DNA from: a virus
Length of the DNA: 32,827 nt
Reading direction: 5' to 3' (one strand)
Virus genome (UHGV): UHGV-1342882
Part shown: piece after piece, positions 1,110-32,546 of the stretch
Position numbering within the stretch: the first letter of the stretch is position 1
How the letters are laid out: every line of letters begins with the position of its first letter
Notes under the pieces: model-generated
Databases searched by the model: none
What the model saw: the letters and a program-made list of their open reading frames with translations, nothing else
What the model was told of the DNA's origin: nothing
Made by a program: the position numbers and the translations under genes

Positions 1110-2075
1110 ATGAAGCTATACATCATCGGGAATGGGTTTGATCTGCATCACGAACTTGACACGAGCTATTTCTCATTTGGGGATTATCTTCGGAAGAAAG
1201 ATCGAGACATTTACGATCACTTGGTTGAGTTTATGGGATTTACTGACTTACCCCCTTCTCTTTCCGCAGTTGATAAGTCAAAACATTCTCTTTGGTCTGA
1301 TTTCGAAAACAGCTTAGCGGGTCTGGATACAGAGTCGGTGCTCGAAGAGTTTAGCTATCTTTTACCCCAAATTAGCAGCCCCGATTTTCGTGACAGGGAC
1401 TGGAACTCATTATCCATTGAAATGGAACGTATACTAGAAAATTTAACCGAGGGACTTTTAACACAATTCAAGTCATTTATATTGCAGGTTAACTACCCCG
1501 AACTTAATTTAAAAAAAAGATTGCGTATCGATTCTGATTCTATCTTTATCAGTTTTAATTACACTGACACTCTTCAGAAATATTATAGTATTGATGATAG
1601 ACAAATTTTATATATTCATGGGAAAGCATCATCAGATCAACAGTTGATTTTAGGTCATGGTATTGACCCTATCAACTTTGAAGAAAAGGAAGCAGTCCCG
1701 CCCGAAAATGCAACCGATGAAGAACTTGAAGAGTGGCGTCAGTGGATGGCTGATAATTACGATCACTCTTATGAAATGGGAAAGCAGACTATTAATAAAT
1801 ACTTCACTTCTTCTTTTAAGAATACTGAAAAAGTCATTGCTGACAGCGCTAAATTTTTTAAAAATCTCAGTAACGTAGACGAAATCATCATCATCGGCCA
1901 TTCGTTATCATCTGTAGATGTTCCCTACTTTTCTTTTATACATAGCATTGTTAGTAAAAATACGGAATGGATAGCCACCTATTATCAGGAAACTGAGCGT
2001 GAAGCACATCATACAACATTATGTGAGATTGGCATTAAATCTCCCAAACTGATTTCAGTAAGTAAACTTCTATAA
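1110..2075 (+). CDS. AbiH-like abortive infection protein (phage defense cargo)
   Basis: N-terminus MKLYIIGNGFDLHHELDTSYFSFGDYL matches the AbiH family signature as I recall it; AT-rich island; GGAG 8 nt upstream of ATG; lies between attL and the last tail gene. Confidence 0.6.
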   Translation: MKLYIIGNGFDLHHELDTSYFSFGDYLRKKDRDIYDHLVEFMGFTDLPPSLSAVDKSKHSLWSDFENSLAGLDTESVLEEFSYLLPQISSPDFRDRDWNSLSIEMERILENLTEGLLTQFKSFILQVNYPELNLKKRLRIDSDSIFISFNYTDTLQKYYSIDDRQILYIHGKASSDQQLILGHGIDPINFEEKEAVPPENATDEELEEWRQWMADNYDHSYEMGKQTINKYFTSSFKNTEKVIADSAKFFKNLSNVDEIIIIGHSLSSVDVPYFSFIHSIVSKNTEWIATYYQETEREAHHTTLCEIGIKSPKLISVSKLL

Positions 2076-5674: not shown

Positions 5675-6053
5675 TGCGCATCAGCGATACCCTGTATTCA
5701 CGCCAGGCAGTAAAAAGCGCTTTTTCTGCGTCCGTCGCTTTACCCAGATCAACGGCATCCTGCAAAGGTGCCAGGATATTGCTGGCCGCAGCCATCAGGG
5801 CAGATTTTTGCGTCTCAGCCCTTACGATTGATTCTTCTTCAGAAAGCGGTAGGGGGTCAGAAAGGACCGGCTGACCATATTCATTTGGGATGATGATACG
5901 CCCTGAACTCTTATCAATCAGATACTGATACCAGCGCTCAGAAATCAACAAGGCGTCAGCAGGCCAGCCCAGTTCCGATTTTTCATAATCTGGCTTCAAC
6001 GAAAGGAAGAAAAATCCATTCATGGAAGCACTGTAATAATATTGCTCATCCAT
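5616..6053 (-). CDS. Tail fibre assembly protein (Tfa / gpG-like chaperone)
   Basis: 145 aa directly downstream of the tail fibre gene; N-terminus MDEQYYYSASMNGFF is typical of enterobacterial phage Tfa proteins as I recall. Confidence 0.7.
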   Translation of the reverse strand: MDEQYYYSASMNGFFFLSLKPDYEKSELGWPADALLISERWYQYLIDKSSGRIIIPNEYGQPVLSDPLPLSEEESIVRAETQKSALMAAASNILAPLQDAVDLGKATDAEKALFTAWREYRVSLMRIDTDSATDIVWPEQPADVA

Positions 6054-6056
6054 TTT

Positions 6057-7979
6057 TTAATATCCCGTTGCCAGCCAGAACAAAGGAAAGCCCTGGTTTG
6101 CGTTAAGCCTTGCCGTCGTATTGGAATATTGCGACACCGAACATTCGAGCGTCCCGGCCACATTCGAGGTAAAAGGCGTGACCTGAATATTCCGGCACGC
6201 ATTCGGGAATGCGATCGGGAACGTAATATTTTGATAACCGGACGTCTGGTTCGTGTAACCCCACTGACGGATCCTTCCTGTTGTTCCGTCGCGCTCCCAG
6301 CCGTTTTGCCCCAGGCTGGCCGTATTCTTCAGGTTATAGCGTGCGTCGCTCTCGGCTTTTGTATACGACCCAATCGACCCCGCCGAAATGGTGATGTTTG
6401 CTGTACCGTTAAATGCCACGCCGTTGATGGTGCGGGCGGTTTGCAATTGTGACGCTGAAACCGCATTACCATTTGACGCAAGAGCGCCAATCTCTGCCGG
6501 GGTGGGCTTGTTCGCCACATCATAGGCTTTTGTCCATGCAGACCAGGTGCCACCATAAAGCGTTCGGGCATAACTGCGGGAATTGTTGTACACGCGATAA
6601 ATTTGCGTGATTCCGGCATGCTTAAGGACTTCAAGAGAACCCGCGATCGCCTCCGGGTAATTCGTCCCGGTTTGCGCCTGCGCGTTCGCGGGCTGGTAAT
6701 AAAGCCCTGGCGTGGTGTAGTTGTTCAGATTTGCTGCATTACCAATCCCTTCGGCCAACCGAAAAATATCAGACGGGAAAAGATCGATATTACTCGATAG
6801 CGCTCGACCGTTAACCGTTCGTGTTGAGGGCACGCGACTATTAGCATTATCGTTAGCCGCCTTAACTGCTTTCGGCGTCGCGGCGACGGCTTCCGACTCG
6901 CTGTCGGTGGCGCTGCTCAGTTGAATAATCCCTTTCTGCGCTGTCGTAGCGTCCTGCGCGGTGTATTTACCTTTCGCCAGGTCATAGGTTGCCTTAACCG
7001 CTTTCGGCGTTGCCGCTACTTCTTCAGAATCGCTATCCGTGGCGCTGCTTAATTGCGTGAATCCCTTTGCGGTTGTGGTGGCGTCCGGGTGGTTGCGTGA
7101 TTGTTCGTGTTTTTTCAGCGCATCACTGGCCTGTTGCTCGTTCAGCGTACCTTTTGGACGAAGATCGGTAATGACGCCGTTTGCGTCGATACTCGCAAGG
7201 GCAAACACGAAATGTTGCTCACCATTCTGCACGTAATCTTTAAGGTCGGCGGCAACCGTGATTTTGCTTTGTACCGCCCAAATGCTCGTAAGCGTTCCCA
7301 TCCACGCCACATCCAGCCAGACCTTAACCGGCTTTGTTGACACGGTAATATTCTGGTTTGCGGCCAACACTGAACGCAGACCGGCAAGGTATCCAGTACC
7401 TTTAGTGACAAAATACTGGGTGCCTGTTTTCGCGACCAGATAACCCGCATCAAAGAACGACGCCGCACCATACAGATCGATATTTTCGCGGCGCTGGCGT
7501 TCATCCATTGCCGCCAGACGGGCAGTAAAATCAATCTGCCATGTCTCTGCCGGGGTGGTAATTTCCGTTGCTTCCCTGGCTCCGCTGTATTCCATCAGCA
7601 TGGAACGGACCAGAACGTTTCCCTGCTGGCCGTTCGCATTTTTGATTTTACGCTGGGTCGGGGCATGAATAATCATCGCCAGTGTACCGGTGGCTTTATT
7701 TGCCAGACCGATCCAGTTGAAATCAAAATCACCCACATCTGCCCCCATCGTGACGGAATAAACGACAGAGTTTTCATTCACAACACCGGATTTACTCACC
7801 ACCTGACGATAAACAATTTTATCCGCTGCGGGTGCTGTCTCGGTATTATCAATCGGCTTATCAGCATCCAGCCCCGGAATATACGCGAAAATAAATTCAT
7901 CCAGCGTGACGGGCTGATTATTAATAGCCTGCTGGGCTTTCCACTCTGTAAATGCTTTTGTAATAACAGCCTGTGACAT
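6057..7979 (-). CDS. Tail fibre protein
   Basis: 640 aa; contains the collar segment HEQSRNHPDATTTAKGFTQLSSATDSDSEEVAATPKAVKATYDLAKGKYTAQDATTAQKG that closely resembles the P2 gpH segment I recall; internal tandem duplication of the QLSSATDS..VAATPKAVKA motif. Confidence 0.8.
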   Translation of the reverse strand: MSQAVITKAFTEWKAQQAINNQPVTLDEFIFAYIPGLDADKPIDNTETAPAADKIVYRQVVSKSGVVNENSVVYSVTMGADVGDFDFNWIGLANKATGTLAMIIHAPTQRKIKNANGQQGNVLVRSMLMEYSGAREATEITTPAETWQIDFTARLAAMDERQRRENIDLYGAASFFDAGYLVAKTGTQYFVTKGTGYLAGLRSVLAANQNITVSTKPVKVWLDVAWMGTLTSIWAVQSKITVAADLKDYVQNGEQHFVFALASIDANGVITDLRPKGTLNEQQASDALKKHEQSRNHPDATTTAKGFTQLSSATDSDSEEVAATPKAVKATYDLAKGKYTAQDATTAQKGIIQLSSATDSESEAVAATPKAVKAANDNANSRVPSTRTVNGRALSSNIDLFPSDIFRLAEGIGNAANLNNYTTPGLYYQPANAQAQTGTNYPEAIAGSLEVLKHAGITQIYRVYNNSRSYARTLYGGTWSAWTKAYDVANKPTPAEIGALASNGNAVSASQLQTARTINGVAFNGTANITISAGSIGSYTKAESDARYNLKNTASLGQNGWERDGTTGRIRQWGYTNQTSGYQNITFPIAFPNACRNIQVTPFTSNVAGTLECSVSQYSNTTARLNANQGFPLFWLATGY

Positions 7980-20118: not shown

Positions 20119-21930
20119 ATGGCTAAATATTCCGATGAATTAAAAGAAGCGGTCCGCACGCTTTATATAAAAAGCTGGACGCCGAAAGATATTGCGCAGG
20201 AACTGAATATTCCACCGCGTACAATTTACCACTGGGCTGACGTCGGGAAGTGGGCATCACTGCTGCCTGTTGAATCGGTGGAAAATGTCATCGCCCGCCG
20301 TATCGACCAGCTCTCCCGCCGCGAGAAAAAAACGGCGCTGGAACTGGAAGAACTGCGCGATCTGATTGCTCACCATGTGAAACTCATGGCGCAGCGCAAC
20401 AAGCACGCCGAAAAGCTGGCAGAAATTCAGGCCCAGAAAGCGGCTTATGATGGTGAAGGGTACTGCCTCAGCAGCGCAGGCGGGGAACCAAGGGAAAGAA
20501 AGCGCCGGTATAAGAAAAACGACGTTTCCGGTATTACAGCGGAAATGCTCGACACCTGGGCGCGGGAACATCTCTTCGAGTACCAGCTGCACTGCCGCGA
20601 ACATAAAGGCGAAGACTGGCGCTTCATTCTGAAAAGCCGCCAGGTGGGTATGACCTATTATTTCGCCTGGGAAGCATTTGAAGACGCCGTCATTACCGGT
20701 GATAACCAGGTCTTTTTCTCTGCAAGCCGATCCCAGTCGGAAATCTTCCGCGAATACATCGTCCAGATCGCCCAGAACCATTTCGGCGTGACGCTGACGG
20801 GTAAAAATATCCGCCTCAGTAACGGCGCAATACTGCGCTTTTTGTCCACGAACGCCAGCACCGCACAGGGCTTTAACGGCCACCTGTATGGCGATGAGGT
20901 TTTCTGGATCCCGAAATTCACGCGCCTGCATGAAGTTGCCAGTGCAATGGCAACGCATAACAAATACCGCACGACCTACTTTTCGACGCCCAGCGCGAAA
21001 ACGCACCAGGCTTACCCGGTCTGGACTGGCGAAGCCTGGCGCGGTGACGACCCGAAACGCAAAGGTGTGGCGTTCCCGACAGAAAGCGAAATGCGCCAGG
21101 GCATTCTCTGCCCGGACCAGATCTGGCGCTACATCATCACGATGGAAGACGCTATCGAAGGTGGCCTCGGTGCGCTTGTCGATATTGAACGGCTTCGCAA
21201 CAAATACAGCCCGACCGCGTTCGCCATGCTCTACATGTGCCAGTTTGTTGACAGTAAAGACGCGGTTTTCAAGTTCTCCGCGCTTGTTGGCTGTGAAGTG
21301 GACCGGGCCACATGGGGCGACTTTGATCTGACTGCTGCGCGGCCCTTCGGCAATCGCGAAGTATGGGCAGGTTTTGACCCGTCGCGCTCCGGCGACAACT
21401 CAACATTTGTGTTAATCGCGCCCCCTATAGAGGACGGCGAGCGCTTCCGCGTGCTGGCCGTCTGGCAATGGCAGGGTTTTAACTTCAGCTGGCAGGCCGA
21501 CCAGATAAAGCAGCTTATGCGCCGCTTTAACATCACTTACATCGGGATCGATACAACCGGCATAGGTAAAGGCGTTTATGACCTGGTCAGCAAATTTGCG
21601 CCACGCGAAGCCACACCCATTCTTTACAGCGTCGAAAGCAAAAACCGCCTGGTGATGAAGATGATCGACGTTGTCGAGCGTAAGCGCATCGAATGGGCAA
21701 AAGACGCCGTAGACGAAACGAACAAGGAGCGCGTCGAAATTCCGGCCAGCTTTATGGCTATCCGGCGCACGACAACCAACAGCGGCAACGCGCTGACGTT
21801 TGTTGCCGAACGTTCAGACGCGACCGGCCATGCAGATGTTTTCTTCGCTATCTCGCACGCCGTAATTAACGAACCTATCGATCACGAATATGACCGCCCA
21901 TCGGGCTGGTACTTTGGGAAAGCAGCATGA
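20119..21930 (+). CDS. Terminase large (ATPase) subunit, gpP-like
   Basis: 603 aa; divergent from gpO and followed by the portal gene with ATGA overlap, as in P2. Confidence 0.8.
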   Translation: MAKYSDELKEAVRTLYIKSWTPKDIAQELNIPPRTIYHWADVGKWASLLPVESVENVIARRIDQLSRREKKTALELEELRDLIAHHVKLMAQRNKHAEKLAEIQAQKAAYDGEGYCLSSAGGEPRERKRRYKKNDVSGITAEMLDTWAREHLFEYQLHCREHKGEDWRFILKSRQVGMTYYFAWEAFEDAVITGDNQVFFSASRSQSEIFREYIVQIAQNHFGVTLTGKNIRLSNGAILRFLSTNASTAQGFNGHLYGDEVFWIPKFTRLHEVASAMATHNKYRTTYFSTPSAKTHQAYPVWTGEAWRGDDPKRKGVAFPTESEMRQGILCPDQIWRYIITMEDAIEGGLGALVDIERLRNKYSPTAFAMLYMCQFVDSKDAVFKFSALVGCEVDRATWGDFDLTAARPFGNREVWAGFDPSRSGDNSTFVLIAPPIEDGERFRVLAVWQWQGFNFSWQADQIKQLMRRFNITYIGIDTTGIGKGVYDLVSKFAPREATPILYSVESKNRLVMKMIDVVERKRIEWAKDAVDETNKERVEIPASFMAIRRTTTNSGNALTFVAERSDATGHADVFFAISHAVINEPIDHEYDRPSGWYFGKAA

Positions 21931-22988
21931 CAAAGAAACAGCGTAAAAATAAAAAATTCAGGTCCATGACCGGCAGCAAGGTTGAAACCTTCACGCCAGG
22001 GCGCGGAAGCGTGATCACATTTGGCGAACCCGAACCCATCCTGACGACCGGCACGGATTATCACAATATCTGGTATGACAATGAATATGACCACTGGCGA
22101 CTCCCGATTGATCGCCTGGCGCTGGCCCAGTTGCCGAACCTTAACGGCCAGCATGGTGGGGTGCTGTATGCGCGGCGCAATATGGTGGCCGGTGGCTATA
22201 TTGGCGGCGGCCTGACACCTGACCAGGTCGAACAGGCTGTCTTTGATTACCTGCTGTTTGGTGACGTCGCTATCCTGAAAATTCGTAACGTATTCGGGGA
22301 AGTGATCGACCTGCTGCCGCTGCCGTCGTTGTATCTGCGCTGCCGGAAAGACGGCTCGTTTGCCGTTCTGCAGGAAGGGCCAGCGCTTATCTATGACCCG
22401 GAAGACATCGTTTTCTTTAAAATGTACGACCCGCGCCAGCAGGTATATGGCCTGCCTGACTATATCGGCGGCATCCATTCGGTGTTACTCAACAGTGAGG
22501 CAACCATCTTCCGGCGCCGTTACTACAATAACGGGGCGCATATGGGCTTTATTCTCTATACCAGCGATCCGAATCTGACGCTGGAAATGGAAAACGAAAT
22601 CAAAGAGAAGATCGCCCAGTCCAAAGGGCTGGGTAACTTCCGCAATATGTTTATCAACATCCCGAAGGGCGACCCGGAAGGGGTTAAAATCATGCCTGTG
22701 GGCGAAGTCAGCGCAAAGGATGAATTTGCCAACATCAAAGGGATCACCGCGCAGGATATCTTTACCGCTCACCGTTTCCCCGCAGGGCTGGCAGGTATCA
22801 TCCCGACCAATGGCGCGGTAATGGGCAACCCTGAAACCGCCCGCACAACCTATCGCAAGGATGAAGTTATCCCGTTGCAGCGCAAGCTAATGAACGGCGT
22901 CAACAATGACCCGGAGATCCCCCCACATTTGCACCTGCATTTTGATGTAGATATCCCGGCAATCACCACCGAAAAGGGCGAAAAATGA
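21927..22988 (+). CDS. Portal protein, gpQ-like
   Basis: 353 aa, translationally coupled to the terminase gene; size and position match P2 gpQ. Confidence 0.8.
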   Translation: MTKKQRKNKKFRSMTGSKVETFTPGRGSVITFGEPEPILTTGTDYHNIWYDNEYDHWRLPIDRLALAQLPNLNGQHGGVLYARRNMVAGGYIGGGLTPDQVEQAVFDYLLFGDVAILKIRNVFGEVIDLLPLPSLYLRCRKDGSFAVLQEGPALIYDPEDIVFFKMYDPRQQVYGLPDYIGGIHSVLLNSEATIFRRRYYNNGAHMGFILYTSDPNLTLEMENEIKEKIAQSKGLGNFRNMFINIPKGDPEGVKIMPVGEVSAKDEFANIKGITAQDIFTAHRFPAGLAGIIPTNGAVMGNPETARTTYRKDEVIPLQRKLMNGVNNDPEIPPHLHLHFDVDIPAITTEKGEK

Positions 22989-23302
22989 GCGCAGTTAAGT
23001 TAAAATCATCCCCATTGTTAGCAATGGCGTGCGGGATGGTGAACATGCGAGTTTTTAAAATTAAATGTCCTGAATGCGGCTCACCGGCCATCATTCGTAA
23101 ATCTGACTGGAAAGACAAAAAACTGGCTGATTTATACTGCGCCTGCACGGAAGTTGAATGCGGCCACACCTTTGTTTTTAACGCCCAGTTTTCACATACC
23201 CTAAGCCCCAGCGGACTGACCGGCAACAAGCTGGTTAAATTTCTAATTGATCGACTCAAGCCGGAAGAACGCCAGATAGCATTGGAATTACTTCAACAAT
23301 AA
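22985..23302 (+). CDS. Ogr/Delta-family zinc-finger late transcription activator (probable start at 23045, MRVFKIKCPEC)
   Basis: Cys pattern CPEC ... CACTEVEC resembles the Ogr C-x2-C ... C-x4-C zinc finger; small basic protein. Confidence 0.55.
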   Translation: MSAVKLKSSPLLAMACGMVNMRVFKIKCPECGSPAIIRKSDWKDKKLADLYCACTEVECGHTFVFNAQFSHTLSPSGLTGNKLVKFLIDRLKPEERQIALELLQQ

Positions 23303-23329
23303 ATACTCCGCCTTTAAGGCGGAGTATTT
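23301..23329. terminator. Bidirectional terminator between convergent ogr-like and HEPN genes
   Basis: Perfect 12-bp inverted repeat aaatactccgcc / ggcggagtattt with 5-nt loop, T-rich on both sides. Confidence 0.7.
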
Positions 23330-23332
23330 ATT

Positions 23333-23953
23333 TTAGGCTTGCTGTTTATATAAATAACTTTCTTGCGTTAAAAACAAGTCAATTTCTTCTAACATGATAT
23401 CAATTGCTGCTTTCACTGCATCGATGTATAACTCAATATTTTCCTGAGTTGGTAAAATCGAGTTTTCTCCATGTGCAATACAGTTTCTCACTTGAACAAG
23501 ACGATCTAGAGTAACAGTTACGTCACTAAATCTTTCAAAATCAAAAGCAAACATTTGACATAGTTCTTTCAATACACCACTATGCAAATTCGATTTAGTT
23601 TCAATTTTTGTCTTAAATTTAACGGTTTTTTTTAATAACTCATTAAATTTATCAGTGAACTCACATCGTTGTTCAAATGATTGCTTCCCACTTAAACTTC
23701 TATATGTGTCACCTAATCCAACTACAACTAATCTAGTAGGTATTTGTAATGGGGTTAGTTCTAATTTATTTAAATGCTTTAAAAGCATTTTTAATGAACT
23801 AACTACAAAACCCTCCCAGTTTGCATAAATCATCGGTACACACATCCGCCCCCATAAAACAGGGTCTACTTGATGGGGGTTGACTCTAAATTTAGCAAAC
23901 TCCCCATCTCGCCAGGAGTTTGTTTCATAAATTTCAGCCACTAAACTATGCAC
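23333..23953 (-). CDS. HEPN-domain protein (MAE_28990/MAE_18760-like), predicted RNase effector of a two-gene defense candidate
   Basis: 206 aa; C-terminal Rx4H HEPN motif in VQVRNCIAHGE; AT-rich; start overlaps the upstream DUF262 gene by 8 nt. Confidence 0.55.
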   Translation of the reverse strand: MHSLVAEIYETNSWRDGEFAKFRVNPHQVDPVLWGRMCVPMIYANWEGFVVSSLKMLLKHLNKLELTPLQIPTRLVVVGLGDTYRSLSGKQSFEQRCEFTDKFNELLKKTVKFKTKIETKSNLHSGVLKELCQMFAFDFERFSDVTVTLDRLVQVRNCIAHGENSILPTQENIELYIDAVKAAIDIMLEEIDLFLTQESYLYKQQA

Positions 23954-24995
23954 TTTTGAAAATCTCTAAAGCTCGATCCATCCGATTACGAGTACGTGCA
24001 GTTGAGAATGTGAGCACGCTAATACTTTGATATTTTTCGTCAGTAAGCAATGTATTTATAGCTTCTGTAATTTTTTGCTCATTACCAATGACAGTATCGA
24101 ATACTTTTGGCAAAGCGTATGATATAGAATCAAAAAGATGTAAGGCAAAAGGTCCATTAGGTCTAAATAACTCCTTGCCGCCATGAGATATTAAGAAATC
24201 AATTAACTCAACAAATGATTTTTTTTCACAATCTAAATCAAAAGCAATGTCACCTTTCGACACGGAGCGCATGAAGTCTGAAAGGAAATTAGGAACAGTA
24301 GTATTAAAATCACCATCAAAATGTTTAAAAGCAAAATAGCGAAGCACTAACTCCTCTAAAAACATTTCTTCTTTTTTAGCTGCTGAAGGGTTAATCAACT
24401 CAATGAAATTTGGCATAACTGCAATTTCACGCAATATTTTATTTAAATCAACAGGGTATGATCTAAAAATACAGTTTCTTATCTCTTGATCAGATAACGG
24501 GCTAGCCCCTGTATTCAGTCGATTAAATAGTTCATACCTAATATCTTCGTTACTATCCCAGCGAACAATCTCAACTCTACAAACTGCTCTTTTAATGGTT
24601 GTTTTTAATCTGATTGGAAGAGCATCAATAGTTATATTTTCTAACTCGGCAACCATTTCTCCTTTGCATAGTTTCAGGTTGTTTTTTTCTGGGAGATTAG
24701 TAAGAACACCAAAAAATGAAAAAATTGTTGATATACGCTGTAAGCCATCAACAACCTCCCATTTTCCCTTATCATCTTCTGCTACAAAAATCGGGGGGAT
24801 CGGTATTCCCAATAAAACAGACTCAATAAATCTTGTTTGTTGAAAATTAGACCAACGAAATGCCCTTTGATATTCAGGAGTGATGAATAAATCTCCGTCT
24901 TCAAACATATTCATCAATTCACCAAAAGACATATCTAAACGATCGGCCTTTAATGAATTTCTTTTCTTAGTAATAACTTCTTCTATATCAACCAT
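23946..24995 (-). CDS. DUF262 (ParB-like / GmrSD N-terminal domain) protein, predicted sensor/NTPase of a two-gene defense candidate
   Basis: 349 aa; signature PEYQRAFRW ... FIESVLLGIPIPPIFV ... VVDGLQRISTI (DGQQR-type motif); no DUF1524/HNH signature seen in the C-terminal half; GGAG RBS 5 nt upstream; AT-rich. Confidence 0.8.
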   Translation of the reverse strand: MVDIEEVITKKRNSLKADRLDMSFGELMNMFEDGDLFITPEYQRAFRWSNFQQTRFIESVLLGIPIPPIFVAEDDKGKWEVVDGLQRISTIFSFFGVLTNLPEKNNLKLCKGEMVAELENITIDALPIRLKTTIKRAVCRVEIVRWDSNEDIRYELFNRLNTGASPLSDQEIRNCIFRSYPVDLNKILREIAVMPNFIELINPSAAKKEEMFLEELVLRYFAFKHFDGDFNTTVPNFLSDFMRSVSKGDIAFDLDCEKKSFVELIDFLISHGGKELFRPNGPFALHLFDSISYALPKVFDTVIGNEQKITEAINTLLTDEKYQSISVLTFSTARTRNRMDRALEIFKSA

Positions 24996-25050: not shown

Positions 25051-25087
25051 CCATAGCATTATTACAGTTTCTATCTAGCAGAAACAA
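25051..25087 (-). promoter_or_regulatory. Candidate sigma70 promoter of the DUF262-HEPN operon (-35 TTGTTT at 25082..25087, 17-nt spacer, -10 TAATAA at 25059..25064)
   Basis: Hexamers and spacing read directly from the reverse-complemented sequence; not experimentally supported. Confidence 0.35.
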
Positions 25088-25217
25088 TACCTTTTGAGGC
25101 ATATTGAACATAGCATTCCTTTCAAGTGGCTAAATTGACTACCGGGCTCTTTGCCGCCCGCACCCGCAGAATCACGCCAACCGACGCAACCAGTTGCGAC
25201 GGCCAGCGCGATTGCAT

Positions 25218-27851
25218 TCATTCTTTTGGGAGACGACCTTCCACACCCGCCAGCATTTTTTGATACTCCCCGACCGGATCAAAGCGCAGGCGCGTGGCAT
25301 CAATGCCGTGGTTATCCCGCAGGCGTTCCCATAATTTATTTATCGTCCGTGCATCATCGGGTAATTGACGTGTTATCAACTGGCCGTCAGCGCTGGCCTG
25401 ATAAACTTTGCCGTCTATCTCCAGACGGCTCCCCATTAACAGCGAAACGGCCTGAATCTCTGAAATCTCAACCGAATACAACGTCGCATCAGCCAGCAGG
25501 CTGGCAATCGCAGGGGCAAGAGCCGCCCGTCTGGCTTTTTCAGCCTCCGATCTGGCCTCGGTTTTTTCCACGGCAGAACGCCAGGCGACATCTAATTCGC
25601 TGCTTGGCTCATAAGGTGATCCGCTTTGCTGCCTTTTGAATGGTGTTTCACGTAGTCGCCGCATCAATTTGCGCCGCGTTGGCTGGTCCATATTTTCAAA
25701 ATCGACGATTTCCTCTTCTGATTCTTCTGTAATACCCTCCACACCAAGCGAAAAATCGGTGATTTTTTCGTCTTCCGTAGAGTTATTGACAGAACTCCAA
25801 GCGCCGCCGGTTGGCGACGGCAAAAGGTCAACCCCCAAACCGGGGCCGTTTCTGGCCCCGGTGGCGGCTTTGGATTTGGCGCGGATTTTCCATTTAACCA
25901 GACGGGTGCTAATACGGGAGGCATCACCCAGACGCGGCGACCAGACCCCGAAAACCTTTTCGGGGATCTCACAATAAGCATTCATTTCATCAGCTGGCTG
26001 ATAGGCCAGACGGACGACATAGTTTTCACGCGGGATCAAAACACCCCCCTGGCGGATGATGTAGGTAGCAAAGCACCCGACATCGGCAGCGGCGCAAACC
26101 GCATCCATTGCAGGATCCACAAGCAACGGCGCACCGCGCTTGAAGGTATTGTCAATTTTCTGGCGGGTCGTGATCTGATTGCTCAGTTTGCGCAGCTCGC
26201 GGTAAACCGATATGGGCGGCTGTCCGATGGGCTGAAACTGGCGGATGCGGTGAAGTGACGCCCAGGCCATTGCATATTTGGCTGTTTCATTCAGCGGCTT
26301 GCCGCTTTCGTCGTCCAGTTCACCGGCCAGCGCGTGGCCGTCGATATTCTTCGAAATGTATTTCGCGATATACGCCGTTGCTGACCCTTTCCGTGGGTCC
26401 ATTTTTTTTGACTTGAAACGAGCACCGGTATTGCGGCCCAGCTCGTCGCGGTCTTCCGCAATGAAGTAGGCGCGAAGGATCGCAACCGTAGCTTTAACTT
26501 GCTCTTGTGGCATAAATAGCAATGCGTGCCAGTGTGGTGTCCCATCATGATGCGGCTCAGCGACGCGGAAGCCGTAAGGGCGCAAATCTTCGCGTTTCAG
26601 TTTGGCGGTTGCCCGGTTCCATACTCGGCATAAATAGCGCTGCGCCTGGGCGACGGTGGAATGATTCCATTTGGCGTTATGGTGGCCGGACGCAATATTA
26701 CTGTGATATTTCGACGGGCAAGTGATGGTCAGGAAGATGCCAACATCGCCGCGACTTTGGGCGACAAGCTCAACCCCAGCCATTCGGGCCATAAGCTCAT
26801 GGCGACGAATAGCCGGGTTAGACGTGGATTTATTAATCATTTCCTCAAGCGACGAAACGTTGCCGTATTCGTCTACCAGTTCATGACTTTTGAAAAAATC
26901 CCGGTTTTTACGGCGCTGTTCCTGCCACTCGATCAGGCTGGAAACGCTAACGTAGGCGTGCGCTTTTTTATTTACCGCGCCAACAGCACGCAGCTGGTTC
27001 TCGCGCCAGTCACAACGCAAGCGCCAGATTTTACGCCCCCACCAGTCAGGCGAAGCCATACGCAAAATGGCCGTGCATATGCGCTCGCGTTCCCACGGCG
27101 CATACCATGCAGGCGGTACAATGCGAAGCGCCAGCATTTCGCGGCCCAGGTGGTAATAAAGCCAGTCCAATTCTTCGACGTTCATGTCTGAAACATTCCG
27201 TCCCAGGGCTTCGCATTCCGTCCCCAGCATTTCAGCCATGCGGCTGGCGATCTCATTAGCGGCGCTCAGTGCTTCCCGCTTTGTGAAATCAGCCAGACGT
27301 TGCCAGCGCCCGAACCAGTACGCAGCCAGTTCGCCGGTGATATCAGGCGAAACACCTTGCCTTGTGCGTACAACATCAAGACGCAGCAATGATTTTTTCA
27401 CGGTCCCCATAAGAAAATCATTGGTGTGTCTGGTTTCACGGTTGACCCGTAACCACTCAATTTTTTTACGCCAGACTTCACGAATGAAGAACGGCTCTGA
27501 TAATAAACGCGCTTCGACACCCTCCGGCGTATTGACCCAGGCTGCCGTCGTAGCTTTAGCGGCTTCCATTTCCTGCCGGATTATATTTTGATGGGCGGCC
27601 AGTAGCAGGCCGCACGGTTCGTGCCTGTCCAGCGCCTGGATAAGCGCGTTACGGTCCCGAACCTCGTCGGGGTTGTAACCGGCGCGTTTGAAGATGTGAT
27701 CGATGTGTTTTTTTACGGCTGGATGATGTACCACCGCCCCTGCAAGCGGGGCGATTTTTTTCGGTTCGTAGGTGTACAGGCCAATAGCTGGGCGCGGCGC
27801 GTTCCAGGGCCATGCAAAAGCGGTGTCAGACATTGGATGCCCCGCTATCAC
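25218..27851 (-). CDS. Replication initiation protein, P2 gpA family (rolling-circle nickase); possible start at MSDTAF (27833)
   Basis: 877 aa; contains TAYIAKYISKN with paired Tyr residues characteristic of gpA-type initiators; located in the early operon downstream of cox. Confidence 0.8.
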   Translation of the reverse strand: MIAGHPMSDTAFAWPWNAPRPAIGLYTYEPKKIAPLAGAVVHHPAVKKHIDHIFKRAGYNPDEVRDRNALIQALDRHEPCGLLLAAHQNIIRQEMEAAKATTAAWVNTPEGVEARLLSEPFFIREVWRKKIEWLRVNRETRHTNDFLMGTVKKSLLRLDVVRTRQGVSPDITGELAAYWFGRWQRLADFTKREALSAANEIASRMAEMLGTECEALGRNVSDMNVEELDWLYYHLGREMLALRIVPPAWYAPWERERICTAILRMASPDWWGRKIWRLRCDWRENQLRAVGAVNKKAHAYVSVSSLIEWQEQRRKNRDFFKSHELVDEYGNVSSLEEMINKSTSNPAIRRHELMARMAGVELVAQSRGDVGIFLTITCPSKYHSNIASGHHNAKWNHSTVAQAQRYLCRVWNRATAKLKREDLRPYGFRVAEPHHDGTPHWHALLFMPQEQVKATVAILRAYFIAEDRDELGRNTGARFKSKKMDPRKGSATAYIAKYISKNIDGHALAGELDDESGKPLNETAKYAMAWASLHRIRQFQPIGQPPISVYRELRKLSNQITTRQKIDNTFKRGAPLLVDPAMDAVCAAADVGCFATYIIRQGGVLIPRENYVVRLAYQPADEMNAYCEIPEKVFGVWSPRLGDASRISTRLVKWKIRAKSKAATGARNGPGLGVDLLPSPTGGAWSSVNNSTEDEKITDFSLGVEGITEESEEEIVDFENMDQPTRRKLMRRLRETPFKRQQSGSPYEPSSELDVAWRSAVEKTEARSEAEKARRAALAPAIASLLADATLYSVEISEIQAVSLLMGSRLEIDGKVYQASADGQLITRQLPDDARTINKLWERLRDNHGIDATRLRFDPVGEYQKMLAGVEGRLPKE

Positions 27852-28047
27852 CCTCCCGCTGGGAATGCTTTTCGATTAGCGGGTCGAGTAACACATTGAA
27901 AGAAATCAACAGCGTGTTTGCGGCTTCACTTCCGGCGAGAACACCCGCCAACGTTGCGTGTGCAAGGGCCAGTGTTTTGGCTTCGTTAAGCGCAGCCAGT
28001 GCGCCGCGCTGGTATTCCGAAAGACCGTTATTAATTTTGCTAGCCAT
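27826..28047 (-). CDS. Hypothetical early-operon protein
   Basis: 73-aa ORF, ATGA-coupled to the upstream dam gene and overlapping the start of A. Confidence 0.4.
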   Translation of the reverse strand: MASKINNGLSEYQRGALAALNEAKTLALAHATLAGVLAGSEAANTLLISFNVLLDPLIEKHSQREGDSGASNV

Positions 28048-29012
28048 CAGAAGAGCACCTCGTCAGCCGCTCCACCCCACACGGAATAACCAGCACAAGG
28101 GCCGCAGTCAGGACAGCACCCACCACCGGCACGGCGACAAGTCGCGCAGACTTTGAGGACGCCGATCACTTCACTGGCGGCCCCTCTGGTAATGGCGTTC
28201 GCGCTGACAGAACGGTTAACGATAATTTCCTGGAAGTTGAAAGAGCGATAAATCTCGCGGGTGGCTGGGGTGTCGCTATTAGACAGGATCACCGGCGAAC
28301 CAGTAAGGCGGTTAATATCCAGCTGAGCGGCAGCTAACTGGCGATGCTCTTTAATCCCAAACGGGGCGGTGTGGTATTGGGTGAAATTAGCGGTTTCGCT
28401 TGTTGGCAGGTATGGCGGATCGCAATAGATAACCGCGTCACTACCAATCATGATTTTTAACGTGCTCTGGAAATCGCAGCACACGAAAATAGCTTTCGTG
28501 TCGTTAGCTTTTTCAGAGAATAAACGGATTTGTTCTTCCGGGAAGTAAGGCGGGGTTTTGTGACGCCCAAAGGGAACGTTATATCCACCCTGTTGGTTGT
28601 AGCGTACTACGCCGTTATATCCGTGACGGTTCAGGTAAAGAAATTGTGCTGCACGAAGAATCTTGCCCGCGTCCGGCCCATCTTCAAACACACTGCGCAA
28701 TGACAGTAGGTCACGGGCGCGGGCGTTGAAATCATCGCGGATCCACTTATAGCCGTCTTTATCGCCGTACACTTTAAACAGTGGGCGAGCAGCGTCGATC
28801 ACCGCATCAGGCCAGCGGGTTATCTGGCGATACAGGTTAATTAAATCTGGGTTGATATCACCCAGGATATAACGGCGATATTCAGTATTGAGGAAAACAG
28901 AAGCACCGCCGACAAACGGTTCCACCAGGCAATCGGCTTTCGGCAGAATCGGCAGCAAATCAGGCATAACGCGGCCTTTACCACCGGGCCATTTAACGAG
29001 AGATCGAATCAT
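28047..29012 (-). CDS. dam: DNA adenine methyltransferase (Dam-type N6-adenine MTase) with Cys-rich C-terminal tail
   Basis: Motifs VKWPGGKGRVMPDLLPILP, FVGGASVFLN and catalytic CDPPYLP; C-terminus VCATCRRAGGGCCPDCGPCAGYS. Confidence 0.85.
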   Translation of the reverse strand: MIRSLVKWPGGKGRVMPDLLPILPKADCLVEPFVGGASVFLNTEYRRYILGDINPDLINLYRQITRWPDAVIDAARPLFKVYGDKDGYKWIRDDFNARARDLLSLRSVFEDGPDAGKILRAAQFLYLNRHGYNGVVRYNQQGGYNVPFGRHKTPPYFPEEQIRLFSEKANDTKAIFVCCDFQSTLKIMIGSDAVIYCDPPYLPTSETANFTQYHTAPFGIKEHRQLAAAQLDINRLTGSPVILSNSDTPATREIYRSFNFQEIIVNRSVSANAITRGAASEVIGVLKVCATCRRAGGGCCPDCGPCAGYSVWGGAADEVLF

Positions 29013-29082
29013 TTTTACTTTCTCCAGGGTGCAAGAAGCCCGACGCGTTAGCGCCTGTTTCTTTTTTGTGGGTAGTTAGTTG

Positions 29083-29478
29083 TTAATTTACTGCGTTATC
29101 TGCCGCGGGTGGTTTGTCTCGTATCGCCTGAATTTCGGCGCGTGGTGCGGCGTAGTCCTCAAATTCCCACGGCATTGATGCTGCAAATTCGGAAAGGCGT
29201 TTAATGCCCATCAAAAGGCACGTTTGCTCCTTTTCGGTTAGATTTTCGTAAGTACAACCCAGCTGTTTGGCGGTCAGCTTCGGCATTCCGACTATGTATC
29301 TGGACGCATCGTTTGCCAGGATGAAAATCACCTTTTTGCAGGCATGATCCAGGCGGTTAAAACGGGTTGCAGTGTCATTCACGCGTGAGGCGTTCAAACT
29401 TGCTTGCAGCCGCGCCCGTTGCTCTAAGAACTGGCGGCGACCTGGCTGTTGTTCTGTCTTATCCATCAACATAACCAC
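29083..29478 (-). CDS. Hypothetical early-operon protein
   Basis: 131-aa ORF co-oriented with the early operon; no family recognised. Confidence 0.4.
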   Translation of the reverse strand: MVMLMDKTEQQPGRRQFLEQRARLQASLNASRVNDTATRFNRLDHACKKVIFILANDASRYIVGMPKLTAKQLGCTYENLTEKEQTCLLMGIKRLSEFAASMPWEFEDYAAPRAEIQAIRDKPPAADNAVN

Positions 29479-29487
29479 CTCCCCGAA

Positions 29488-29781
29488 CTACGCAAAGATG
29501 CCCATTAAGCGGGAAAACCAGCGGCGCTTATTACGCGGGCGCGACATGAACGGTACACGGCAGTTTTTAACAAATTGAACATCTACCGCTTTCGGCTGGA
29601 AGAACCTCCCGTCCGGGGTTTCAATCCAGCCACGTTGATGCTGACGGTGGGTGATCTGCTGGCCGTGCGTGAGCAGACTGGCGAGTGAAGGGCATTGTGT
29701 TAATTCCATGTTGATCTCCGTCATATTGAAAAGATGCCGGGATACGACCCCACGCCCGGCGCGTGTTTCCTGTGATAACAT
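29488..29781 (-). CDS. Hypothetical early-operon protein (start may be internal)
   Basis: 97-aa basic ORF; no family recognised. Confidence 0.3.
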   Translation of the reverse strand: MLSQETRAGRGVVSRHLFNMTEINMELTQCPSLASLLTHGQQITHRQHQRGWIETPDGRFFQPKAVDVQFVKNCRVPFMSRPRNKRRWFSRLMGIFA

Positions 29782-29847
29782 CGCTATGCCTGTGTAACTT
29801 TGAGCGGTGAATCAGGCATAACAATCACCAACACAGAAGGAGTTGTA

Positions 29848-30327
29848 ATGAAATTCAATGTATTTTTTAAAAAAGACCACGGATCACACTGGGTGCTTTC
29901 CGATGGTGCCCCCCTCTTTGAAAGTCCACTATTTGAAACAAGACCTAAAGCCATTGATGACCTTGAGAAATTTGTAGGCCTTATGGAATCGCCAATCTTT
30001 ATTAAGGCTGGTGACGATATTAATTCTGGCGATACAGAAAACTGTCCATCTGTAGTTATTTCTTTAAAACAGCATGAATCGCTATGGGGCTGGGAATTAT
30101 TTATCTCAAAAAATGGACAACTGTCTAAAGTTACCGAAAGTTCAGGAAATGGCTTTGACTCATTAGAATTAGCAAAGCAAAATGCCCAGTTTTTCCTTAA
30201 TGCCATTATCGACGCTCCTATTCTGGATCAAGCCGATGTCGCTATCCCCGGCATGCACTTCTCAAAATCTTTCGAGGAAACGCACCACATTGGTGACACT
30301 CACCCATCTAGTAAATGGTTCAAATAA
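29848..30327 (+). CDS. YegP-like (DUF1508) tandem-repeat protein; inverted moron inside the early operon
   Basis: Start MKFNVFF preceded by AAGGAG; two repeats resembling the YegP pattern (F..K.NG ... S ... A ..), e.g. WELFISKNGQLSKVTESSGNGFDSLELAKQNAQFFLNAI; AT-rich; opposite strand to neighbours. Confidence 0.45.
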   Translation: MKFNVFFKKDHGSHWVLSDGAPLFESPLFETRPKAIDDLEKFVGLMESPIFIKAGDDINSGDTENCPSVVISLKQHESLWGWELFISKNGQLSKVTESSGNGFDSLELAKQNAQFFLNAIIDAPILDQADVAIPGMHFSKSFEETHHIGDTHPSSKWFK

Positions 30328-30331
30328 TCCA

Positions 30332-30688
30332 TCACTGTGGCGTTATCGTTTTTCTTGTGCGAGGTGGTACATCTCGCACTGTTTCTTCATCAACAATCAA
30401 CTCATAAACTCTGATGCTGTTATCACCTTTTGATACGTCATCAAATACCTGAAAAAGAAAACTCATGAATTGCTCATAAGTGACGCTGGGTTCAACATAC
30501 CCACCAGTAACCTCAATTAATGGTGTTAGTCCTGAATTATCTGCTAACGAAACGCAGTCCAACTTATCCAAACGGAAAAAGTAATTACCGCAAGGTGTTC
30601 TTTTATCCTTAATCCGTATAAACACATTTGATAACGCTGTATGACTATCTGAGAGTTTAAAGATTTTTGCCGTGTCCATTTTATTCAA
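30332..30688 (-). CDS. Hypothetical protein immediately downstream of cox (AT-rich cargo ORF)
   Basis: 118-aa ORF in an AT-rich segment; no family recognised. Confidence 0.4.
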   Translation of the reverse strand: MNKMDTAKIFKLSDSHTALSNVFIRIKDKRTPCGNYFFRLDKLDCVSLADNSGLTPLIEVTGGYVEPSVTYEQFMSFLFQVFDDVSKGDNSIRVYELIVDEETVRDVPPRTRKTITPQ

Positions 30689-30701
30689 CCCTGTAAGTTG
30701 C

Positions 30702-30977
30702 TTATGATGGATTGCCCAGACCCAACCACATTAACCACCCTTCCCTAATTTCCTTCGGGCGGCTCTCATACGCCATTTTCATGCCGTTGTTCCAGGCTGG
30801 AAGATAGACCCAGTACTCACCTGCCCGCCCGGAAGTTGATTGCGGATCGGTCATTTCAACTACAGGTAGCTTTCCTTTTTCAATCATCCCCTTCACCGCT
30901 GCCGGTGTTTTACCAATGAGTTTTGCGAACTCCTGATATGGGACGGCATCTGTGCTTAACGCGATCTGTTTAACCAT
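30702..30977 (-). CDS. cox: Cox (excisionase / Pc repressor)
   Basis: 91 aa; near-identical over most of its length to the P2 Cox sequence I recall (…DAVPYQEFAKLIGK…GKLPVVEMTDPQSTSGRAGEYWVYLPAWNNG…ESRPKEIREGWLMWLGLG). Confidence 0.9.
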   Translation of the reverse strand: MVKQIALSTDAVPYQEFAKLIGKTPAAVKGMIEKGKLPVVEMTDPQSTSGRAGEYWVYLPAWNNGMKMAYESRPKEIREGWLMWLGLGNPS

Positions 30978-31093
30978 TTAAGGCCCTCACAAGTTTAAGA
31001 ATCGTCACCAATGGCTTATAGTTGCTTTTGATGTTCATTTCTAAACATCAAACAGTCTACATCTAAATCAAATAGTATTGAGATCTAAACACC
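30978..31093. promoter_or_regulatory. Immunity switch region (divergent Pe/Pc promoters) with direct repeats TCTAAAcATCAAA (31040..31052), TCTAAAtCAAA (31062..31072) and TCTAAAcacc (31084..31093)
   Basis: Intergenic region between divergent cox and C genes; direct repeats read from sequence. P2 C repressor is known to bind direct repeats. Confidence 0.5.
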
Positions 31094-31393
31094 ATGTCAA
31101 ACGCCTTAAACGAGAAAATTGTACTCATCAGAAAGTCTGAGTATCTCAGCAGACAGCAACTTGCTGATTTAACAGGCATTCCCTATGGCACTTTAAGTTA
31201 TTACGAAAGTGGTCGTTCTACACCGCCCACGGACGTAATGATGAGGATTTTGCAAATGCCCCAGTTCAGCAAATACACGTTGTGGTTTATGACCGATCAG
31301 GTTGCTCCCGAAGCCGGTCAGATAGCACCGGCCCTCGCACACTTTGGGCAAGATGTAACAACATCGCAGCACTCAGACCAAAAGATTGGTTAA
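31094..31393 (+). CDS. C: Immunity repressor C
   Basis: 99 aa; very similar to the P2 C sequence I recall (MSN…EKIVL…RKSEYLSRQQLADLTG…PYGTLSYYESGRSTPPTDVMM…). Confidence 0.9.
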   Translation: MSNALNEKIVLIRKSEYLSRQQLADLTGIPYGTLSYYESGRSTPPTDVMMRILQMPQFSKYTLWFMTDQVAPEAGQIAPALAHFGQDVTTSQHSDQKIG

Positions 31394-31538
31394 CCATTCA
31401 CCAGGCGCATCTTTATTACAAAATTTGTTTACTTGTTGCCAAATACAACAAGCACAACAATTTTGTGAAATCTAAGCGCAAGGGAAAATTAACAGCAGCA
31501 AAGAAAACTCAACCTAGCACCATTCATTTGGGGGTCTT

Positions 31539-32546
31539 ATGACAATTAAGAAACTCGATGATGGTCGTTATGAAGTGGATATCAGACCTGCAGGGCGCAA
31601 CGGAAAGCGCATCCGCAGGAAATTTGACAAGAAAAGTGAGGCTGTAGCTTTTGAGAAACACACTCAATACAACCATCACGATAAAGAATGGCTAGCTAAA
31701 CCGACAGATAAGCGGCATCTGTCTGAATTAACAAAAGTCTGGTGGGATCTGAAAGGCAAGCATGAAGAACACGGAAAATCCAATTTGGGTAAGATTGAAA
31801 TCTTTACCCGGATCACTGATGACCCTTGCGCGTTCCAGATAACCAAAGCGCTTATTAGCCAGTACAGCATGACTCGCAGAGGGCAAGGCATAAAACCGGC
31901 CAGTATTAACCGCGACCTTACCTGCCTGAGTGGTATGTTTACTGCGCTAATTGATGCGGAACTGTTTTTTGGCGAACACCCTTTCAGAGGGATGAAAAAG
32001 CTCAAGGAGCAGAAACCAGAAACAGGCTATCTGACGCAGGAAGAAATAACATTGTTACTTGCCAATCTTGACGGGGACAACAAGAAAATCGCGATCCTCT
32101 GTTTAAGTACCGGCGCTCGATGGGGTGAAGCCGCGAAACTGAAAGCTGAGAACGTAATACAGAATCGGGTGACGTTCGTTAAAACAAAGACGAACAAACC
32201 GCGCACAGTCCCTATCTCTGAGGAAGTTGCTGTAATGATTGCGGGTAAAGGTTATCTGTTCCCTGATGCCTCATATCCGAAGTTCAGGCGAACAATGAAA
32301 GATGTAAAACCAGATCTACCGGACGGGCAAGCAACTCACGCATTGCGTCACAGTTTTGCTACCCACTTTATGATTAACGGCGGGAGTATCATCACCCTGC
32401 AGAGAATACTGGGACATTCACGCATAGAGCAGACAATGGTCTATGCGCACTTTGCCCCGGAGTATCTTCAGGATGCTGTTTCACTCAATCCGCTACGTGG
32501 TGGCGTTGACTCCATGAGTGTCCACACTGTGTCCACAGTAGGGTAG
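31539..32546 (+). CDS. int: Tyrosine integrase, P2 Int family
   Basis: 335 aa; strong similarity to the P2 Int sequence I recall (…IKKLDDGRYEVDIRP…GRNGKRIRRKFDKKSEAVAFEK…HALRHSFATHFMINGGSIITLQRILGH…RIEQTMVYAHFAPEYLQDA); adjacent to attR. Confidence 0.9.
   Translation: MTIKKLDDGRYEVDIRPAGRNGKRIRRKFDKKSEAVAFEKHTQYNHHDKEWLAKPTDKRHLSELTKVWWDLKGKHEEHGKSNLGKIEIFTRITDDPCAFQITKALISQYSMTRRGQGIKPASINRDLTCLSGMFTALIDAELFFGEHPFRGMKKLKEQKPETGYLTQEEITLLLANLDGDNKKIAILCLSTGARWGEAAKLKAENVIQNRVTFVKTKTNKPRTVPISEEVAVMIAGKGYLFPDASYPKFRRTMKDVKPDLPDGQATHALRHSFATHFMINGGSIITLQRILGHSRIEQTMVYAHFAPEYLQDAVSLNPLRGGVDSMSVHTVSTVG

Follow-up and report, generated by a model that had tools for sequence, protein, structure and literature searches.

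PD-T4-2, from Escherichia coli ECOR65, is an anti-phage system reported as "DUF262, HEPN" in Table S1 of the study describing it (Vassallo 2022, PMC9519451). Its first protein, PD-T4-2A (RCO39066.1), matches PF03235; for the second, PD-T4-2B, an unannotated open reading frame (ORF) in QOYX01000002:338334-339873, HHpred indicated PF18735 (97.8%) and PF18737 (96.9%) (PMC9519451, Table S3). The system came out of a selection for resistance to phages; carried on a plasmid, it protected strain MG1655 from T4, and ECOR65, its native strain, remained viable when deleted for it and allowed T4 to form plaques again (PMC9519451). Described here is a pair of genes of the same architecture, located in the virus genome UHGV-1342882, a stretch of 32,827 nucleotides analyzed as a whole and indicated as "the window". 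The pair is composed of cassette gene A, coding for a DUF262 protein (protein A), and cassette gene B, coding for a HEPN protein (protein B). It is a divergent, unannotated member of the PD-T4-2 family, known, validated and mechanistically unexplored, and not a new kind of system. The preferred reading, to which a probability of about 0.7 is assigned, is that of a PD-T4-2-type anti-phage cassette, self-contained and horizontally mobile, which a P2-like prophage harbors as a moron in the hotspot separating its replication gene A from its portal gene.

Other described systems share one or both of the domains involved. In BrxU and SspE, DUF262 acts as a nucleoside triphosphate (NTP)-dependent regulator of the attached nuclease; the DUF262 systems devoid of DUF1524 include PD-T4-2, Menshen and Dazbog (PMC10952713). 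According to the Menshen study (PMC12065111), NsnA, PD-T4-2 and Dazbog are built around a ParB-DUF262 module to which a helical domain for DNA binding is added, the RNase effectors being polymorphic; DNA sensing in Menshen would be the task of NsnA. Operons in which HEPN genes of the RiboL-PSP / MAE_28990 type are associated with ParB are reported in the HEPN survey of Anantharaman et al. 2013 (Table 1), and PD-lambda-5, a validated defense system, is listed as "ParB/HEPN, methyltransferase" (Vassallo 2022, PMC9519451).

The resemblance of the window pair to PD-T4-2 involves gene order, domains and origin. In both, two adjacent, co-oriented genes are present, DUF262 first and HEPN second, and both are enterobacterial. 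Protein A, as PD-T4-2A, features PF03235 without DUF1524, and is matched by the PADLOC model PD-T4-2_A over nearly its whole length; protein B falls in the two families, PF18735 and PF18737, to which HHpred had assigned PD-T4-2B. The two pairs differ, on the other hand, in length (1,663 bp for the window pair, 123 bp more than the 1,540 bp of PD-T4-2) and in the size of the second protein, which is longer in the window (206 amino acids, while the HHpred alignments of PD-T4-2B end at residue 163). In addition, DNA of the window family is absent from the 5,426 complete E. coli genomes (RefSeq) searched for the cassette by megablast and blastn, and protein B is missed by the PADLOC model PD-T4-2_B. 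A preliminary description of the locus, made from the sequence letters, had implied that the pairing was unnamed and possibly new; this does not hold, since PD-T4-2 already has a DUF262, HEPN architecture, validated against T4. An exact match to a named system, an outcome also contemplated there, was not obtained: the architecture is that of PD-T4-2, but protein B escapes the PD-T4-2_B model, and NsnA is the better-scoring model for protein A.

The two minus-strand ORFs of 349 and 206 amino acids, originally noticed by reading the letters, were found at the positions assigned to them, with the 8-nt overlap then reported; the shared nucleotides are GTGCATAG. The location of the start of gene B within the 3' end of gene A implies translational coupling. 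All the peptide strings quoted for the two proteins (PEYQRAFRW, FIESVLLGIPIPP and VVDGLQRISTI; VQVRNCIAHGE) are present, and both genes are AT-rich, as had been claimed (33.7% GC, against 52.8% in the window outside the cargo). Homologs are counted in thousands for gene A and in hundreds for gene B, and the ratio of nonsynonymous to synonymous substitution rates (dN/dS) is 0.03-0.18 for both genes, wherever dS is measurable and not saturated. Such values, well below 1, rule out a pseudogene or a chance ORF and indicate, from sequence comparison, that both ORFs are real genes under purifying selection.

The only Pfam family matching protein A is PF03235 (GmrSD_N/DUF262; 2.2e-27, residues 27-177). 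Within the family, three DUF262 motifs, Y42-Q43-R44, D83-G84-x-Q86-R87 and F157...N161, are invariant (alignments of 29 and 50 sequences), and the domain assignment made in the preliminary description is therefore supported by both profile and motifs. The lack of a DUF1524 or HNH signature in protein A, also noted there, is borne out by the absence of Pfam matches to DUF1524 (PF07510) or HNH in either protein. Two PADLOC models extend over most of protein A: NsnA, from Menshen (1.6e-66, 223 bits; residues 13-348, profile positions 42-381 of 385), and PD-T4-2_A (1.3e-47, 161 bits; residues 25-347, profile positions 41-362 of 363). The C-terminal half is all-helical in the AlphaFold2 model. A sequence search against solved structures yielded, for this protein, a marginal DUF262 match only (9jfl, 1.5e-4). 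Protein A keeps, in short, the NTP-binding and hydrolysis motifs and the helical domain which follows DUF262 in BrxU, SspE and NsnA, without a nuclease.

Protein B matches two HEPN families, PF18735 (HEPN_RiboL-PSP; 6.6e-21) and PF18737 (MAE_28990; 2e-18). Its Rx4H motif, R156-N-C-I-A-H161, is invariant in the alignments (25 and 50 sequences) and conserved in at least 90% of 150 representatives, clustered at 50%. A four-helix, up-down HEPN fold is predicted with confidence, its structural matches including HepT-type toxins, and the HEPN assignment put forward at first sight is in agreement with profiles, motif and fold. By sequence, the sole match among solved structures is to the ribosomal protein uL23, and is non-significant (E = 0.19). 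Protein B would accordingly be a HEPN RNase with an intact catalytic motif, RNA cleavage being its predicted activity. The start of gene B differs among public annotations, which give products of 202 and 170 amino acids, and a partial one of 148. The 206-residue version, starting at a GTG overlapping gene A, is most likely correct, because residues 7-36 are strongly conserved across the family; the 170- and 202-residue versions most likely start too far downstream, and many database entries would be N-terminally truncated. No useful family for either protein is available in NCBIfam.

The association of the two genes is maintained in all loci analyzed. A protein B relative lies directly downstream of gene A in 12 out of 12 loci retrieved with protein A (51-99% identity), one of them from a Bacteroidota genome; the two genes share 8 nt in eight loci and 11-14 nt in the remaining four. 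At 33-42% identity, all five distant viral loci tested feature an overlapping HEPN gene of the RiboL-PSP/MAE_28990 type, coding for 188-222 amino acids. The pair is kept in the 4 genome contexts examined out of 4, and all complete related loci examined retain A and B together, down to 33% identity. The identities of the A and B relatives to the window proteins are, moreover, correlated (r = 0.97). The question of co-occurrence elsewhere, raised in the preliminary description, is thus answered by retention of the pair in both sets of loci. Adjacent, overlapping, diverging together and under purifying selection, the two genes form one unit. In diverse Gammaproteobacteria, the A proteins of the subfamily share about 70% identity, and the B proteins about 60%.

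Contexts in which the cassette is found are defense-like or mobile: P2 hotspots, an island resembling an integrative and conjugative element (ICE) in Salmonella and an integrase island in Vibrio. In Salmonella enterica (L015, L016, L018) the pair, 88% identical, lies in the ICE-like island, which is bounded by an integrase and contains TraI_2, ArdC, RES, an HNH McrA-like gene and Fic (genes at about 8663-11663 of L018). Here it is directly downstream of a 237-amino acid Phage_GPA fragment, which suggests capture from a P2-like hotspot, along with part of replication gene A. The Vibrio cassette adjoins a restriction-modification system of the MvaI/BcnI type (type II). In Rouxiella badensis (CP049603.1, 7378-10973; L023) the cassette, with 84% identity, is found in a P2-like prophage, located between ogr and the integrase: the slot is different, and the cassette is not, therefore, tied to the gene A-portal hotspot. 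The same hotspot as in the window hosts, in Peduovirus P24B2 (coliphage P2_4B2, LR595873.1; 140-3041), a strongly divergent pair, formed by a DUF262 protein of 381 amino acids and a MAE_28990 HEPN protein of 239; it adjoins a DNA-cytosine (Dcm) methyltransferase and the replication gene, corresponding to the ParB, HEPN and methylase arrangement of the 2013 survey.

The exact window proteins are encoded on about 45 Escherichia contigs, under the labels "DUF262 domain-containing protein [Escherichia]" and "Uncharacterised protein [E. coli]", and more than 1,000 contigs from Salmonella encode a near-identical version. At the nucleotide level, the search against phages matched 58 nt of flank only. 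With tblastn, protein B found no match in 50,697 phage records, although HEPN partners are revealed there by Pfam.

Coordinates of cassette, signals and surrounding genes are reported in Table 1. The cassette appears to be equipped with its own signals, as the preliminary description had anticipated. The sequence GGAG, 5 nt upstream of the gene A ATG, provides the ribosome-binding site then indicated. Scanning the region 5' of gene A for consensus promoters returned no site at the threshold of 9/12; the TTGTTT/AATAAT element listed in the table matches 8 positions out of 12 only. This element, with its 18-nt spacer and TGn extension, is, however, kept in aligned cassette 5' flanks which are otherwise dissimilar and come from five unrelated contexts (the window, L012, L002, L015/16/18 of Salmonella enterica and L023 of Rouxiella badensis), and may be regarded as the putative cassette promoter. 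The plausible -35/-10 pair mentioned earlier is, in other words, backed by conservation and not by consensus strength.

Table 1. Features of the cassette and of the prophage region hosting it; positions refer to the window.
Feature	Position	Strand	Description
Cargo segment	23275..25142	-	1,868 bp, AT-rich, GC 0.33-0.34; stands where phage SI7 has a small ORF and an orphan DNA methyltransferase
Cassette gene A (gene 1)	23946-24995	-	ATG start, 349 aa; DUF262/ParB-Srx-like NTPase domain (~27-177) and helical C-terminal domain; predicted sensor/regulator
Cassette gene B (gene 2)	23333-23953	-	GTG start, 206 aa; all-helical HEPN, RiboL-PSP / MAE_28990 clade; R156-N-x-x-A-H161; predicted RNase effector
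Putative sigma-70 promoter	25058..25087	-	-35 TTGTTT (25087-25082), 18-nt spacer, TGn extended -10 AATAAT (25063-25058)
Bidirectional intrinsic terminator	23298..23332		17-nt perfect inverted arms; directly after the gene B stop; common to gene B and the ogr-like gene
P2-type replication gene A, left hotspot border	25218-27851	-	PF05840 Phage_GPA, 3.4e-106; ~94% identical to the SI7 homolog
Ogr/Delta-like zinc-finger late activator, right hotspot border	22985-23302	+	PF04606, 2.4e-17
Portal, beyond the ogr-like gene	21927-22988		PF04860, 1.1e-13
Large terminase, beyond the portal	20119-21930		PF03237/PF17289

In the predicted fold of the terminator (dG -24.6 kcal/mol, z = -6.7), a 3-nt loop caps a stem of 15 bp; no equally good fold was given by any of 200 shuffled sequences. 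Being flanked by an A-run and a T-run, the hairpin is able to serve both gene B and the convergent ogr-like gene, and the end of the latter within the hairpin makes termination possible from both directions. A perfect bidirectional terminator with a 12-bp stem had been proposed: the terminator is there, the stem being longer than stated (15 bp, with arms of 17 nt). An Rfam scan of the cargo gave only sub-threshold matches, on the terminator hairpin, and no tRNA was found in the window. Promoter and terminator are conserved, and accompany the cassette into other mobile elements.

The prophage backbone is P2-like (Peduoviridae, Irrigatiovirus-like), with about 95% identity to the Salmonella phages SI7, SW5 and SW3. 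When aligned by blastn, homology to SI7 ends at window position 23274 and restarts at 25143, corresponding to SI7 29559 and 28483, respectively. The matching slot of SI7 (28484-29558) holds gp36, a small hypothetical ORF, and gp37, an orphan DNA methyltransferase, and the event is a sharp-edged cargo swap. In P2-like prophages, the interval flanked by the replication endonuclease and portal genes is a known hotspot, home to tin, old and several of the systems newly reported by Vassallo 2022 (PMC9519451); the window too features, between replication gene A and the portal, variable AT-rich genes. The location initially proposed, between P2 replication gene A and ogr/portal, is supported by the identity of the flanking genes and by the exchange relative to SI7.

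Additional features of the prophage may be mentioned. A gene of the AbiH family (1110-2075, plus strand, 321 amino acids; PF14253, 7.9e-62) is located in a second AT-rich patch (GC 0.34-0.42), between a fragment of a host-like peptidase U32 gene (78-773) and the onset of SI7 homology (2163); it is a second defense-type gene, placed at the opposite end of the prophage or slightly beyond it. In the early region, a D12-class (Dam-type) N6-adenine DNA methyltransferase is encoded (28047-29012, minus strand; PF02086, 2.1e-57), which might be relevant to self/non-self discrimination by a DNA-sensing cargo. SI7 homology is also missing at 5763-6990, where SI7 carries its tail-fiber and tail-fiber-assembly genes, and at 29695-32342, reaching a different integrase (31539-32546); both are mosaic regions typical of P2-like phages.

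The relationship with systems other than PD-T4-2 is defined by what the cassette shares and by what it lacks. With Menshen (NsnABC; Millman 2022; Zhang lab 2025, PMC12065111) it shares the architecture of NsnA, ParB-DUF262 plus helical C-terminus, in protein A, its predicted sensor role and the logic of an RNase-type effector. Unlike Menshen, the cargo has no NsnB, the ABC ATPase with a DUF3696 tail, and PADLOC finds no match to it; protein B is a single-domain HEPN protein encoded directly downstream, and NsnC, where an inactive PIN is joined to the effector, is not matched either. Protein A carries the QR, DGQQR-like and FxxxN motifs, as GmrSD, BrxU and SspE do, but the DUF1524 His-Me DNA nuclease, C-terminal in their single polypeptides, is missing, and a separate HEPN gene is found in its place. 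Judged by gene content, the cassette belongs neither to Menshen (no NsnB or NsnC) nor to GmrSD (no DUF1524).

HEPN genes of the RiboL-PSP/MAE_28990 type beside a ParB-superfamily gene make the cassette similar also to the operons of Anantharaman 2013, and some relatives adjoin DNA methylase or restriction-modification genes; the cargo, in contrast to the methylase-containing operons, includes none, the Dam-type enzyme being encoded elsewhere in the prophage, and the 2013 description is computational and generic. ParB-like and HEPN modules are combined in PD-lambda-5 as well; this system, however, includes a methyltransferase gene, and no PADLOC model for it matches protein A or B at E <= 1. 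Further candidates were discarded: WonAB from V. cholerae is formed by an ABC ATPase and a PD-(D/E)xK nuclease, GrwAB, from the same species, contains DUF1524, and HEC-05/06 are full GmrSD-like proteins, of other architecture.

Domains and P2 hotspot context support what the preliminary description had proposed, i.e. a candidate anti-phage operon combining a GmrSD-type sensor with a HEPN RNase acting in trans. Several observations, nevertheless, weigh against its assignment to the PD-T4-2 type. Protein B gives no match to the PADLOC PD-T4-2_B model at E <= 1, and its homology to PD-T4-2B is suggested by shared Pfam families; protein A scores higher on NsnA than on PD-T4-2_A. The AlphaFold2 model of protein A is of moderate quality, with a predicted local distance difference test (pLDDT) score of 70 overall and about 50 in the DUF262 domain, because of the shallow diversity of the input alignment. 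In Xanthomonas the pair stands alone among housekeeping genes, without mobile or defense neighbors. No mechanism of PD-T4-2 is published in the literature searched, the interaction of A with B is suggested by gene overlap and co-divergence, and the cassette, with its close homologs, is known from genes only. As to the first of these points, none of the 150 diverse relatives and none of the 5 distant partners is matched by the PD-T4-2_B model either, and the model therefore appears narrow. PADLOC scans of 150 + 10 proteins, together with viral-contig scans and an exhaustive HEPN profile search, gave no PD-T4-2_B match, and no close ortholog of PD-T4-2A is present among the retrieved A proteins, the best one reaching 161 bits by PADLOC. 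Since protein B misses this narrow model, the locus is probably left uncalled by automated defense tools.

The tight organization of the operon, with overlapping genes and the partner upstream, and its presence on many mobile elements would also fit a toxin-antitoxin or addiction module, where a constitutively active HEPN toxin is kept in check by the DUF262 protein as antitoxin; stabilization of prophage or island would be the main function, and any defense would arise only secondarily, when host shut-off leads to loss of the antitoxin. HEPN toxins are indeed known from HEPN-MNT and related toxin-antitoxin pairs, the structural matches of protein B include HepT-type ones, and an analogous interpretation was proposed by Anantharaman 2013 for MAE_18760 HEPN and ParA pairs. 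Such a module is considered unlikely: protein A, with 349 amino acids and invariant NTPase motifs, is more in keeping with an enzyme or a sensor than with an antitoxin acting by simple sequestration, and PD-T4-2 comes from a phage-resistance selection, its native deletion being viable and restoring T4 plaquing. DNA itself might be the target, as in type IV-like restriction, if protein A were the effector, a ParB-type DNase or nickase acting on modified phage DNA, and HEPN only a regulator or a minor activity. This is very improbable, as DNA cleavage in BrxU, SspE and GmrSD resides in DUF1524, missing here, and DUF262 is described as an NTPase/sensor (PMC10952713); the invariant Arg and His of HEPN argue, in turn, for an active RNase.

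A different issue, bearing on classification more than on mechanism, is raised by the PADLOC scores. NsnA is the best match for protein A (223 against 161 bits) and for every distant relative tested, and NsnA and PD-T4-2 are grouped together, along with Dazbog, in the Menshen study (PMC12065111). The cassette might then be an offshoot of Menshen and not an ortholog of PD-T4-2, in which the NsnA sensor, having lost NsnB and NsnC, signals straight to HEPN. An origin of this kind is held improbable: ORFs resembling NsnB or NsnC are present neither in the cargo nor in the neighborhood of more than 20 related loci, the same study treats PD-T4-2 as a separate DUF262-centered system, and the higher NsnA score may only mirror a broader model.

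For the PD-T4-2-type cassette, a mode of action may be outlined, although the specific order of events, from sensor to RNase, is given roughly even odds. Translational coupling would keep the output of A and B in a fixed proportion, and the two proteins would associate, the HEPN RNase being silent within their complex, as HEPN RNases such as DARNA stay inactive until triggered. Protein A would then recognize some feature of the DNA of an incoming phage; the target range of PD-T4-2 makes T-even-like DNA, either modified or in replication, a plausible trigger. Binding and hydrolysis of NTP by protein A would free active HEPN dimers, or allow their assembly; such an NTP-driven switch is proposed because in BrxU and SspE DUF262 switches the attached nuclease. 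RNA (tRNA, mRNA or rRNA) would be cut by the dimers, and both translation and the growth of the phage would come to a halt.

A more speculative proposal, regarded as rather doubtful, is that the family may represent a distinct lineage, one that arose when a DUF262 sensor of the NsnA type became joined, independently, to a full-length RiboL-PSP HEPN RNase: an evolutionary bridge between Menshen and PD-T4-2, with its own trigger and phage range, invisible to current defense-finder models. If this were true, the high conservation of the subfamily would make it a good model for the study of how a DUF262 NTPase switches on a separately encoded effector.

The findings leave the current understanding in place, and the practical points are modest. 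The cassette adds a further case to the cargo exchanges at the P2 gene A-portal hotspot. A widespread and strongly conserved subfamily of DUF262 and HEPN pairs probably escapes current automated defense annotation, and a wider PADLOC PD-T4-2_B model would increase the counts of PD-T4-2-type systems. Finally, a cassette so compact and well delimited, its two overlapping genes enclosed by a putative promoter and a terminator, is convenient for the study of a DUF262 NTPase controlling an RNase in trans.

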